A stretch of DNA of 61,596 nt from a virus. The notes beneath the pieces are model-generated. The model made no database searches. It had not been told where the DNA came from and worked only from the letters and a program-made list of their open reading frames with translations. The DNA is taken from IMG/VR virus record IMGVR_UViG_3300009111_000003, one strand, 5' to 3'. Positions 11,129 to 12,913 of this stretch are shown here, one piece after another (positions within the stretch are counted from its first letter, which is position 1; every line of letters begins with the position of its first letter). A program made the position numbers and the translations under genes.

Positions 11129-11156
11129 TTGCACTTCACGCCTGCACGGGCATAAT
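11129..11156 (+). promoter_or_regulatory. Candidate sigma70-type promoter for paralogue 1 (TTGCAC-16-CATAAT)
   Basis: The sequence reads ttgcac ttcacgcctgcacggg cataat. The downstream leader carries three GGCAGGCA motifs (11201-11248). Confidence 0.4.
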
Positions 11157-11253
11157 CATTAGTGACGCCCTCACGGGGCGCACGCACGTTGACAAGTGAA
11201 GCGTGGCAGGCAGGCAGTGCAGGCGCACTGTTTGACTGATAGGCAGGCACACA

Positions 11254-11886
11254 ATGAAGTATGAAGCGCGTTTGACTGTAGTGAAGGCACTGCACGCACT
11301 AGGCAAGGCACTTGTTGACCTACAAGCACTGTTTGACACAACGCCCGTCAACAAGCGCGTGCAGGCAGTGAAGGCGTTTGACAGGGCACTGTTTACGGCA
11401 TGCGTTGACGCGCATGACGGCAACGCTGATACCGCTATCAGGCAGTGCCGTTTTCACGCCTTCACGTTGCCCTACGTTGACGCTGTAGGGCATGCGTTTG
11501 CCGTTGACGGTGGCGCAAAGCGCGGGCAAGTGACGCTACTCACTTGCACTGATACAACGGGCAAGGCGTTTGCCGTTATCACTGCACTTGACGGCAACGC
11601 TGCAAGCACAAAGTGCGTTGACACGTTCACGGGCACGCTAGCGTTTGACCGTGCAAAGGCGTGCTACCGTGCAGTGCGTGAGGGCATGCCCTACGTTGTG
11701 AAGGCAAAGGGCAAGTTTGCCGTTAGTGACAACGGGGCGCACGTCAACGCTGCACTTGTTACCGTTGCAGCGTATGAAGGCGCAACGGGCAAGGCAAAGC
11801 GCACGTTTGACGTGTACCGTGCGCACGGCACAAAGGGCAAGGGCACGGCATACCGTGCAAGTGAGGGCAAGGCACAAAGGCAGTAA
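11254..11886 (+). CDS. Unknown protein, paralogue 1 (210 aa), with atypical composition
   Basis: It aligns collinearly with ORF 12294-12851 (RFHAF, GHAFAxDGGxKRGQ, RAKAxYRAxREGxPYV, KGKFAV, HVNAA). There is no canonical SD. It lies in the VGA/TCB-free island. Confidence 0.7.
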   Translation: MKYEARLTVVKALHALGKALVDLQALFDTTPVNKRVQAVKAFDRALFTACVDAHDGNADTAIRQCRFHAFTLPYVDAVGHAFAVDGGAKRGQVTLLTCTDTTGKAFAVITALDGNAASTKCVDTFTGTLAFDRAKACYRAVREGMPYVVKAKGKFAVSDNGAHVNAALVTVAAYEGATGKAKRTFDVYRAHGTKGKGTAYRASEGKAQRQ

Positions 11887-11923
11887 CAAGGGCAACGCCT
11901 GCCACGCTTTACTTGACGGCACG

Positions 11924-11958
11924 GGGCGCATGCTACACGGCATGCGCCCTTTGCTTTG
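11924..11958 (+). terminator. Rho-independent terminator
   Basis: 10-bp stem gggcgcatgc / gcatgcgccc with loop tacacg, followed by tttgctttg. Confidence 0.7.
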
Positions 11959-12062
11959 CCCGTATGCAAACGCATCAATAGCCGATTTTATGCCATAGGA
12001 AAATCACTGCACCACGCTGTAGTGCGATAGTGGCACTTGGAAAACGCCCGAAAACTCAAGAG

Positions 12063-12097
12063 CCGAGGTAGAGGTAGTATTCCCTGTGATTCGGCAT
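12063..12097. repeat. ~35-nt element copy 1 (GAGGTA..GAGGTAgtATTCCCTGTGATTCGGCAT)
   Basis: A second, similar copy lies at 12978-13017. Each copy follows the terminator of one paralogue cassette. Confidence 0.6.
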
Positions 12098-12194
12098 GCG
12101 GGGGCTTTTAGTCTTCCATGTAGTAATGGCGTCGATACATCTTGCGAACCCGAATATGCAAGAACAAGGTCGCAAAAACTAGTTGCGAAAACGC

Positions 12195-12275
12195 TTGACA
12201 TTTGCGATTCTGTGTGCGAGACTTGTCTCGTGGGGTGAACCTTGACACAGCGAATAGGGTGGCTGGGAGCCAACC
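12195..12275 (+). promoter_or_regulatory. Promoter cassette for paralogue 2 (TTGACA, weak -10, box variant ggctgggagccaacc)
   Basis: The sequence ttgaca tttgcgattctgtg tgcgagact has the same spacing as the canonical cassettes. Confidence 0.5.
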
Positions 12276-12293
12276 AGAAGGGTGGCACTCAGA

Positions 12294-12851
12294 ATGAAGT
12301 ACGAACTCAGAGTCAAGATCGTCGCGGCGATCCGTGCGCTCGCGAAGACCGAACTGGAACTGCTCCAGAAGGTCTTCAACGAGACCAAGGATTCCGCAAG
12401 GGATGCAGCCGTCAAGAAGGCATTCCCGAAGCTCTACGCTCACGCGGACGGGAACGTTCGGCAACTGCGGTTCCACGCATTCGCCGATCCGTACGCGAAG
12501 GCAGCGGGACACGCGTTCGCGATTGATGGTGGCACGAAGCGTGGGCAGATGACACTCATCACGAGCGTGGACTCCGAAGGTCACGAACTCGCCGTCATCG
12601 CAGCCCCCGATGGCTCACCTGAGAAGGTCAAGGTAATCCACACGTTCCACGGGTCGGATCACCTTGAGCGTGCGAAGGCAGCGTACCGAGCCGAGCGCGA
12701 AGGTCAGCCGTATGTTCCGAAGACCAAGGGGAAGTTCGCCGTGGATCTCGCTGGTCCCCACGTCAACGCCGCGATGGTGAGCGTGGATTCCTACGAGCGG
12801 AGCCGCAACAAGAACGCGTTCCAGGTCTACCGCGCAGGCACGAAGGGCTAA
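12294..12851 (+). CDS. Unknown protein, paralogue 2 (185 aa), with typical phage composition
   Basis: SD gaagggtgg lies 9 nt upstream of ATG 12294. It is homologous to ORF 11254-11886. Confidence 0.75.
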   Translation: MKYELRVKIVAAIRALAKTELELLQKVFNETKDSARDAAVKKAFPKLYAHADGNVRQLRFHAFADPYAKAAGHAFAIDGGTKRGQMTLITSVDSEGHELAVIAAPDGSPEKVKVIHTFHGSDHLERAKAAYRAEREGQPYVPKTKGKFAVDLAGPHVNAAMVSVDSYERSRNKNAFQVYRAGTKG

Positions 12852-12885
12852 CAGAACAACCACTCCCAGCCACCACCCCACACGA

Positions 12886-12913
12886 GAAGCCGCCTTCGGG
12901 CGGCTTTTCATTT
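12886..12913 (+). terminator. Rho-independent terminator
   Basis: Stem aagccgcc / ggcggctt with loop ttcg, followed by ttcattt. Confidence 0.75.

Follow-up and report, generated by a model that had tools for sequence, protein, structure and literature searches.

A first early cassette free of a degenerate trinucleotide, and its ordinary paralog, in a phage genome and its relatives

The phage genome recorded in IMG/VR as IMGVR_UViG_3300009111_000003 (61,596 nucleotides, referred to at its full length as the window) carries, at the head of its early genes, two adjacent single-gene cassettes that encode paralogous proteins, here called c1 and c2. The first cassette lies within an island that is almost completely devoid of the degenerate trinucleotide VGA (AGA, CGA and GGA) and of its reverse complement TCB (TCC, TCG and TCT), whereas the second has the ordinary composition of the phage. 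Similar islands occupy the same slot in related phages, even where the gene located there belongs to a different protein family. A possible explanation, which we favor over the others considered below, is that DNA in this first slot must escape an attack directed at DNA.

A motif-free island contains the entire c1 cassette

The island extends from position 11024 to position 11983, and its unusual composition is shared by both strands. Within these 960 bp, AGA, TCT, GGA, TCC and TCG are each absent and CGA occurs once (at 11107), although 14 to 20 occurrences of each word, or approximately 100 in total, are expected. The 30-odd GA dinucleotides that are left, other than the one in this CGA, are all present as TGA, and every TC is present as TCA. 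No other region of this kind exists in the 61-kb genome. The island spans the promoter, leader, open reading frame (ORF) and terminator of c1, and also includes about 105 bp upstream of the −35 element.

The coding region of c1 has been shaped accordingly, as evident by the fact that it carries no VGA or TCB site while the coding region of c2, which is typical for this phage, carries 72. Phenylalanine is encoded by TTT and TTC in a ratio of 9:2 in c1 and 0:8 in c2, TCN serine codons are absent from c1, and the codon preceding each of its Asp or Glu codons ends in T. Because the Asp codon GAC must therefore be preceded by T, c1 is strikingly rich in TTGAC. We considered this richness as a possible promoter or sigma factor decoy and rejected the idea, since it is a consequence of the T-before-GAC rule. 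The amino acid content is likewise shifted (four Glu residues in c1 versus 11 in c2, and three Ser residues versus eight), such that c1 is low in Glu, Ser, Ile and Pro. The original prediction treated the two copies as equivalent, which is not correct given that they differ both in composition and in promoter class.

A second compositional feature of the island is strand specific. GGCA occurs 34 times where 4.9 are expected, exclusively as an excess on the sense strand, and its complement TGCC occurs eight times in the same stretch. This strand bias suggests a separate feature that acts at the level of RNA. Hypermutation by a TC-specific deaminase was also considered as a source of the island and was rejected, because the GC content is not lowered (0.57 versus 0.54), GCA and GGC are elevated about 3.6-fold, and the gene is under purifying selection.

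c1 and c2 are ancient paralogs that are both maintained by selection

The c1 coding sequence (11254–11886, plus strand, as are all features of the two cassettes and their spacers given below) specifies 210 amino acids with an isoelectric point (pI) of 9.61 and a net charge of +12, and lacks a canonical Shine-Dalgarno (SD) sequence. The c2 coding sequence (12294–12851) specifies 185 amino acids from its ATG, with a pI of 9.67 and a net charge of +9, and is preceded by the SD sequence AGAAGGGTGG. When aligned by BLASTP, the two (11254–11883 against 12294–12848) match end to end with 98 identities in 196 positions (50%; E 2e-59). The paralogy and the basic character of both proteins that had been proposed from the sequence are thus confirmed, and the formal alignment replaces a by-eye estimate of roughly 45% identity. 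The sequence blocks noted at that time (RFHAF, GHAFAxDGGxKRGQxTL, RAKAxYRAxREGxPYVxKxKGKFAV, HVNAA and VYRA) are invariant or nearly so in an alignment of four family sequences, which comprises window c1, window c2 and two orthologs from a related phage contig, L001.

The genes have the properties of a tandem duplication, in that they are similar over their full length, adjacent, on the same strand and separated by 408 bp. However, this duplication is not recent. L001 carries the same order of terminase, control region, c1 ortholog and c2 ortholog, and the orthologs of the two phages are 62% (c1) and 64% (c2) identical, compared to 46–53% for paralogs. Orthologs being closer than paralogs, the duplication predates the split of the window and L001 phages. 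The ratios of nonsynonymous to synonymous substitution (dN/dS) relative to the L001 orthologs are 0.18 for c1 and 0.24 for c2, with synonymous sites saturated. Values near 0.2 indicate purifying selection on the proteins of both copies. The original view of a tandem cassette duplication therefore holds with regard to the adjacent paralogs, but must be amended with regard to its age and, as described below, to the spacers. On the evidence of these sequence comparisons, we regard it as firmly established that c1 and c2 are ancient paralogs, both retained by purifying selection in separate single-gene cassettes.

The same slot is motif-free in most readable relatives

Relatives in addition to L001 were reached by using terminase homologs of 55–75% identity, and the first slot could be read in six members of the clade including the window phage. 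This slot is motif-free in five of the six: the window phage and those represented by L001, L005, L007 and L012. The site-free gap measures 715 bp in L005, 665 bp in L007 and 952 bp in L012, where the island genes encode 182, 202 and 167 amino acids, respectively, whereas the L001 island is a weaker version. For the five islands pooled (4.36 kb in total), the observed and expected counts are 0 and 78 for TCC, 2 and 70 for TCT, 2 and 68 for AGA, 4 and 73 for GGA, 8 and 104 for TCG, and 9 and 95 for CGA. Almost all of the leftover sites reside in L001. The ratio of GGCA to TGCC is approximately 4:1 in every one of the five islands.

The gene within the island is not always a recognizable relative of c1. 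Those of L007 and L012 form a second family (family B), which also includes a gene of L008, and homology between this family and the c1/c2 family (family A) is not detectable (hhalign probability 0.1%). The island protein of L005 (L005_182) is no more than a top-ranked match without significance. In L007, the island gene (one site) is followed by a paralog of normal composition (58 sites) that is 32% identical to it (E 1e-12). The c1/c2 and L007 pairs therefore combine a motif-free first copy with an ordinary second copy, and do so in two families without detectable relationship. From the comparison of these genomes, it appears firmly established that the motif-free island is a conserved, positional feature, and that the pair design recurs with another family.

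These observations bear on the explanation that there is no special design, and that c1 and c2 are a redundant duplication of an accessory ORFan, the composition of c1 being left over from horizontal transfer out of a genome whose oligonucleotide usage was unusual. Early arms commonly begin with accessory orphan genes, many of which can be dispensed with, and the L008 phage manages without an island. But the island persists in five lineages despite saturated synonymous sites (dS above 1.2), covers noncoding flanks and carries different genes, whereas a passive relic would no longer be recognizable. Purifying selection on both copies likewise speaks against this view. This explanation is close to refuted.

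Host-specific restriction can be set aside as a cause of the island on other grounds. Site avoidance is clearly one strategy of the window phage, as evident by the genome-wide scarcity of several palindromes: AGCT occurs twice (184 expected), GGCC 12 times (191 expected), TTAA never (24 expected) and CCGG 61 times (196 expected), GATCA occurs five times (121 expected), TGATCA-type sites are also avoided, and GGTACC, GTGCAC, CACGTG and AGCGCT are all absent. One of the two AGCT sites in the window is located inside c2 (12430). This pattern looks like avoidance of host-specific restriction. L001 does not exhibit the avoidance of AGCT, GGCC, TTAA and CCGG (AGCT is present there at 1.5 per kb), yet it carries the island. 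Restriction of this type was therefore rejected as the cause, and the island must answer to something that is common to the clade.

The depletion is symmetric between strands

The missing words form exact reverse-complement pairs, which suggests an agent that reads either strand of DNA. Furthermore, the depletion extends beyond the transcription unit both in the window and in L012, where the gap starts about 130 bp before the promoter and continues for about 180 bp after the terminator. This strand-symmetric depletion outside of the transcribed region argues for an effect at the level of DNA rather than RNA.

The competing possibility is that c1 enjoys immunity at the RNA level. A sequence-specific endoribonuclease, either a host toxin resembling MazF or a shut-off RNase of the phage, would destroy ordinary mRNAs, the c1 mRNA would still be translated because it lacks the cleavage motif, and c2 would function only while the RNase is inactive. 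This mechanism is compatible with the L007 island, whose limits, the −10 element and a point shortly after the terminator, match those of a transcription unit, with the sense-strand GGCA enrichment, which is a signal at the RNA level, and with the joining of the c1 mRNA ends by a helix (see below). The principle is also established for MazF, since mRNAs engineered to lack ACA, as used for single-protein production, have been rewritten by synonymous and conservative changes until their three-nucleotide target is gone and remain functional while all other messages are cut (PMC9102682, PMC5408214). However, those mRNAs are man-made and concern RNA and a single strand, while the island is natural, symmetric between strands, equipped with noncoding flanks and longer than the transcript. 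A single-stranded RNA target would not predict that both members of the pairs AGA/TCT, CGA/TCG and GGA/TCC are each reduced to approximately zero on the sense strand, nor that the island is longer than the transcription unit, as it is in the window and, at either end, in L012. We consequently judge an RNA-level cause to be unlikely.

A candidate leading-region cassette that may evade DNA-level attack

In the early arm, c1 holds the first slot and adjoins a conserved control region and the terminase genes. Packaging that starts beside the terminase genes, as it does in lambda-type phages, would by gene order leave this slot to be packaged last. The interpretation that we prefer as the most parsimonious, although we hold it only tentatively, is that c1, backed by an ordinary copy, belongs to a leading region and escapes an attack at the level of DNA. 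Specifically, the first slot would have to function at a time when the remainder of the genome is still at risk, the likeliest reason being that this slot is the first to enter the cell, and would be kept free of the target motif of an attack common to the hosts or the phages of this clade. Candidate attackers would include a very frequently cutting nickase or an enzyme directed at single strands. c1 could then supply, from a plain sigma-70-type promoter, a first dose of a nucleic acid-binding protein for host takeover or anti-defense, and c2 would supply the bulk of the same protein once the cell has been made safe.

Precedents for such an arrangement exist. The absence of motifs from the first-injected region decides restriction sensitivity in T5/BF23 and in Murciavirus (PMC10644984, PMC12455610). 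The first-step-transfer (pre-early) region of T5/BF23, like the leading region in T7-like phages, would resemble the present locus in having early genes at the presumed first-entering end, in depending for survival on a stretch without motifs for host nucleases and in encoding takeover or anti-defense proteins of unknown fold, and may also do so in the repeat-rich noncoding stretch that comes next (PMC10644984, PMC12455610). The corresponding stretch in the window, and likewise in four relatives, is nearly free of the putative recognition motif, with a single VGA/TCB site in 960 bp. The systems differ in that a degenerate trinucleotide is missing here instead of a few sites of 4–8 bp, and in that the region is only about 1 kb long, carries one gene and is adjoined by a paralog of ordinary composition. 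In the present case, moreover, the order of entry is deduced from the arrangement of the genes, and any terminal repeat would be hypothetical.

Several points weigh against this proposal. That the slot enters first is inferred from gene order only, and the assembly is circular, with its ends overlapping by 123 nucleotides. To our knowledge, no enzyme with VGA/TCB specificity is known, and neither bacteria nor the phages that infect them are known to possess an agent of this kind that reads a three-nucleotide word. When 20 early and middle ORFs of the window phage were scanned against Pfam, no methyltransferase was revealed, and the sole match to a nuclease family was a PD-(D/E)XK protein. L008 has a single family B gene of ordinary composition and no island. 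The sense-strand excess of GGCA is strand specific and is not explained by a DNA-level model. Neither the L005 nor the L007 cassette has the closing helices described below, which are therefore not part of a general design of the slot. Finally, the assigned protein function depends on charge, position and a structural model of low confidence (pLDDT, the predicted local distance difference test score, 56–61).

A more specific version of this scheme, which we consider doubtful, invokes a novel enzyme that is either conserved among the hosts of the clade or encoded by its phages. This enzyme, either a nickase specific for three nucleotides or a modifier of single strands, would attack every VGA/TCB site, such that the motif-free cassette would be the only DNA to survive or function during a first, separate stage of entry, with the ordinary paralog taking over afterwards.

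Helices close the predicted c1 and c2 mRNAs end to end

In all four family A cassettes, the 5′ untranslated region (UTR) is predicted to pair with the 3′ UTR immediately after the stop codon. The 5′ arm of the c1 helix (11193–11215) contains the GGCAGGCAGGCA boxes (11205–11216), and pairing extends over 19 nucleotides at 95% complementarity, with a mean pair probability of 0.69 in the minimum free energy (MFE) fold of the full transcript. Its 3′ arm, GCCTGCCACGC (11893–11915), was recognized by repeat search, MFE folding and shuffling. The former uses the box GGCAGGCA that is also found in other leaders, and the latter is the corresponding ‘anti-box’. For c2, the 5′ arm (12230–12269) is formed by nucleotides 12230–12237 and 12258–12269 with a conserved CCTTGACA looped out between them, and the 3′ arm CTCCCAGCCACCACCCCAC (12863–12881) was located by the same three approaches as that of c1 (MFE pair probability 0.95). 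The predicted start of c2 transcription, near position 12230, coincides with the first base of this helix. The c1 helix comprises about 22 bp, and that of c2 comprises 10 and 8 bp separated by a 20-nucleotide bulge; for comparison, the duplex around early phage mRNAs that RNase III processes is nearly continuous and measures about 20 bp or more. MFE folds of L001 pair nucleotides 8735–8743 and 8860–8877 with 9563–9593 (c1), and nucleotides 9945–9952 and 9968–9981 with 10563–10586 (c2).

These helices stand out against several controls. Perfect runs measure 11–13 bp in the four cassettes (13 bp in window c1 and 12 bp in window c2), and were reached by at most one of 2000 shuffles in any of the four and by none of 2000 for window c1 and for c2. 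Fifteen other genes in the window yield runs of only 4–7 bp. Furthermore, the helices are present in minimum-energy folds of whole transcripts with pair probabilities of 0.69–0.99. The c2-type helix also differs in sequence between the window phage and L001 (GGTGGCTGGGAG/CTCCCAGCCACC versus ATAGGCGGGGTC/GACCCCGCCTAT), with six of 12 pairs changed on both sides and none broken. We therefore consider it firmly established, within the reach of structure prediction, that the c1 and c2 mRNAs are helix-closed. When closing helices were sought in the island cassettes of L005 and L007, none above chance was found.

RNAs with joined ends are known from other systems. The hok mRNA undergoes fold-back pairing between its fbi and tac elements, and RNase III helices flank rRNAs and the early mRNAs of phage T7. 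In these examples, as in the present one, a helix closes the whole RNA and covaries between relatives. They differ from it in that the enclosed RNA here is an ORF of 0.55–0.63 kb for a basic protein, rather than a small toxin or an rRNA, and in that the helices considered here are 18–23 bp with bulges and are predicted from sequence. The end-to-end helix would most likely protect both mRNA ends or mark them for trimming by RNase III.

A third small unit that may be closed in the same manner was observed at window positions 15655–15900, where the box AGGGCAGGCA (approximately 15657–15666) is complementary to TGCCTGCCCT (approximately 15888–15897). The latter arm lies just after the stop codon of a 62-codon ORF (15688–15873) and is followed by a GC hairpin without a T tract.

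Promoters, leader boxes and terminators

Each cassette had been described as possessing its own promoter region and a clean terminator. Both elements are indeed present, the promoters as predictions, but the promoters belong to different classes and the U tract of the c1 terminator is weak. The predicted c1 promoter, TTGCAC-16 nt-CATAAT (11129–11156), was read from the sequence and is unlike the standard early class TTGACA ... TGCTACGCT. The arrangement of CATAAT or GATAAT followed by ..AGTGA also precedes the island genes of L005 and L007. In contrast, the predicted c2 promoter, TTGACA-17 nt-GAGACT (12195–12223), is a variant of the TTGACA..TGCTACGCT class and is kept as TTGACA..GACACT in L001. 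A hairpin scan places the c1 terminator at 11923–11960, with 12 pairs in the hairpin (11923–11950) and TTGCTTTGCC as its U tract; the CCCTTTGCTTTGCCCG of this terminator is common to the L007 island cassette. The c2 intrinsic terminator, GAAGCCGCC-TTCG-GGCGGCTT-TTCATTT (12886–12913), was read from the sequence. The gene order and the individual promoters (predicted) and terminators agree with the original prediction that the cassettes are separately transcribed at the head of the early arm.

As seen in early genes of L005, L007, L012 and the window, the ribosome-binding site of the clade is GAAAGGGTGAGT or AAGGGGGTG, which contains no VGA and so fits within islands. Window c1 lacks this site and instead has ATAGGCAGGCACACA before its ATG.

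The c1 leader carries three copies of the box GGCAGGCA, at 11205, 11209 and 11242. This box occurs 18 times in the window where 1.85 are expected, and in other early units it lies downstream of the transcription start and ahead of the ribosome-binding site, which bears out the earlier claim that the boxes of the c1 leader are those found downstream of early promoters. Such a distribution raises the possibility that c1 and c2 are a regulatory pair that binds a GGCAGGCA(ACC) leader box. The GGCA-rich c1 message and the box/anti-box helix would then serve autoregulation or titration, the two proteins might form a heterodimer or act at different times, and the VGA/TCB gap would be a separate matter. 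In addition to the abundance and placement of the box, the GGCAGGCAGGCAGCAGGCA run in the L001 leader, the basic character of the proteins, the GGCA excess in the island and the anti-box within the c1 3′ arm are in agreement with this idea. Against it, neither a DNA-binding nor an RNA-binding domain was matched, L007 and L012 have boxes and an island but carry another protein family in the slot, and proximity is the sole tie between the proteins and the GGCAGGCAACC box. We therefore view a regulatory pair as an improbable basis for the locus.

Repeat elements follow each cassette

An element of about 35 nucleotides, with the form CGAGGTA..GAGGTA..TTCCCTGTGRWT, follows each cassette as had been proposed, the first copy being CGAGGTAGAGGTAGTATTCCCTGTGATTCGGCAT (12063–12097) and the second CGAGGTAAATCAGAGGTACATTTTCCCTGTGGATCGACAT (12978–13017), as supported by the sequence and by repeat search. 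Its core is kept in the related phage; the 12-nucleotide core pattern alone has three matches versus 2.1 expected, and so is not rarer than chance. Pattern searches revealed further boxes in these spacers. The first spacer contains GAATATGCAAGAA (12152–12164), and the second contains three GAATAC(G/T)..AGAA boxes (12928–12970), two of which are exact copies of GAATACGTCAGAA. All four window matches to GAATAYKYMAGAA (0.65 expected) fall within the two post-cassette spacers. The GAATAYKYMAGAA boxes and the GAGGTA..TTCCCTGTG element appear in opposite order in the two spacers, which indicates that the spacers are not simple tandem copies. TCAGAAW repeats (TGATCAGATTTC, CGTCAGAAATC and CGTCAGAATAC) are present after the first or second cassette in L007 (5540–5640), L001 (10628–10680) and the window (12926–12972). 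In L012, two arrays of some 20–25 GTTAA/CTTAAG-type repeats (3930–4230 and 2710–2920) flank the island on both sides, and may be boundary or protein-binding arrays.

Repeats at these positions are relevant to the possibility that the phage must be immune to its own weapon. By this account, the phage would encode a VGA/TCB nickase that destroys host DNA and would enter by a T5-type two-step process in which the repeat-rich spacers act as the injection stop, such that the motif-free cassette alone is inside the cell during the attack on host DNA, while c2 and the rest of the genome enter later. The conservation across phages of repeat elements after each cassette, together with the L012 arrays, is as expected for such a process. 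Similarly, T5/BF23 has a repeat-rich region at the boundary between first and second transfer, and the escape of its first-step DNA from degradation is unexplained (PMC10644984). Nickases with degenerate three-nucleotide sites also exist, as the chlorella virus enzymes Nt.CviPII (CCD) and Nt.CviQII (RAG) read words that are similar in form to TCB and VGA (PMC3017599). However, the genomes of chlorella viruses are shielded by methylation and not by omission of motifs, and no such enzyme or candidate nickase emerged when 20 early and middle ORFs of the window phage were compared with Pfam. Since the avoided motif does not change between slots with family A and slots with family B, the slot protein is unlikely to set the specificity. 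Moreover, stepwise injection is without evidence in this siphovirus-like phage. Self-immunity of this kind consequently seems improbable to us.

The c1/c2 family is an extreme orphan

The family, which consists of basic proteins of about 20 kDa, is highly isolated. From 5.8 billion clusters, a word-indexed search recovered just three proteins, namely c2 and the two orthologs located on a single 54.9-kb Logan contig (L001). When a profile of the four sequences was compared to 1.84 billion representative proteins, it recovered only the two clusters of the family itself and one spurious match, P0005, which was rejected as a translated tandem repeat. Megablast and tblastn searches of 50,697 phage records yielded no match, and searches of IMG/VR yielded no relative of the c1/c2 family and none of the terminase.

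Searches for a known domain gave a similar outcome, in agreement with the original prediction. There was no significant match to the family in Pfam, PHROGs, NCBIfam, PADLOC or the sequences of the PDB, with the best matches below cut-off being DcpS_C (E 0.0022–0.015) and phrog_20083 (E 0.025). A match to BrxA (E 9e-4) was rejected because it involves a single member of the four and residues 6–62 only. Two AlphaFold runs on the four-sequence alignment reached an overall pLDDT of 56 and 61. The confident part is an N-terminal five-helix bundle (c1 residues 1–77, pLDDT 80–93), and the remaining alpha/beta portion falls below 50–65. Three Foldseek searches with these low-confidence models against the PDB and BFVD returned nothing below E 0.1, and matches such as PprA and CdiI were dismissed as noise.

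HEPN-type RNases are characterized by an all-alpha bundle whose last helix contains an Rx4-6H motif. The invariant RQxRFH (R-x4-H) in the last helix of the predicted N-terminal bundle has the form of this motif. HEPN identity is nevertheless an unsupported lead, since no HEPN family was matched in Pfam (E up to 10) and no HEPN structure appeared among the Foldseek results. The charge of the proteins and the position of their genes suggest nucleic acid binding in host takeover or anti-defense.

Genomic setting of the first early slot

The window is a complete, circularly closed phage assembly with an exact 123-nucleotide overlap (1–123 equals 61474–61596), which gives a genome of 61,473 bp. A second assembly (k = 141), which measures 61,614 bp, corresponds to the same genome length. 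The late genes are on the minus strand, including large terminase (7725–9335), portal (5929–7692) and tape measure (50128–53688). The early and replication genes, among them an SNF2-type helicase, a primase-helicase, a DnaE-type polymerase and ThyX, are on the plus strand from approximately 11.2 to 40.3 kb. The portal protein is just 27–30% identical to those of the nearest cultured phages.

The c1/c2 locus is situated where the late and early arms diverge, directly after the control region. This region (window 10560–11030, L001 8000–8610) is 73% identical between the two phages, far above the level at synonymous sites. Its long invariant blocks include CTCGCGCGTAAGA, AAAAAATAACCTAGAG, GGCTATGCCTACGCTTTTTT and CACTGAAA, and the island starts no more than 15 bp from the last block. 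The region may serve as a packaging site, as an origin or for late promoters. No tRNA genes were found in the window, and Rfam produced no match in positions 10400–13500.

Two further genes were observed in the course of this analysis. An early ORF of the window (17470–17931) has a sub-threshold match to the restriction-alleviation family Lar (E 1.9e-4, 22 bits, cut-off 28.6). In L012, an HNH_3 endonuclease gene (7775–8107) lies directly 3′ of the large terminase gene, and is not found at that place in the window.

Implications

Known cases of motif avoidance involve a handful of sites of 4–8 bp. Here, a whole degenerate trinucleotide is gone from approximately 1 kb, and the amino acid make-up of the encoded protein is bent accordingly. 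The recurrence of this feature in five lineages and at least two protein families, twice together with an ordinary paralog, is difficult to account for unless some conserved agent reads a three-nucleotide word.

The two ‘dialects’ in which c1 and c2 are written offer a simple experimental handle, and the end-to-end mRNA helices are a second unusual feature that can be tested. Islands free of a short word at the heads of early arms also provide a search image for similar systems in other phages. If the reading that involves a novel enzyme is true, the locus would reveal a new kind of nuclease for defense or host shut-off, as well as staged entry resembling that of T5 in an unrelated siphovirus lineage.

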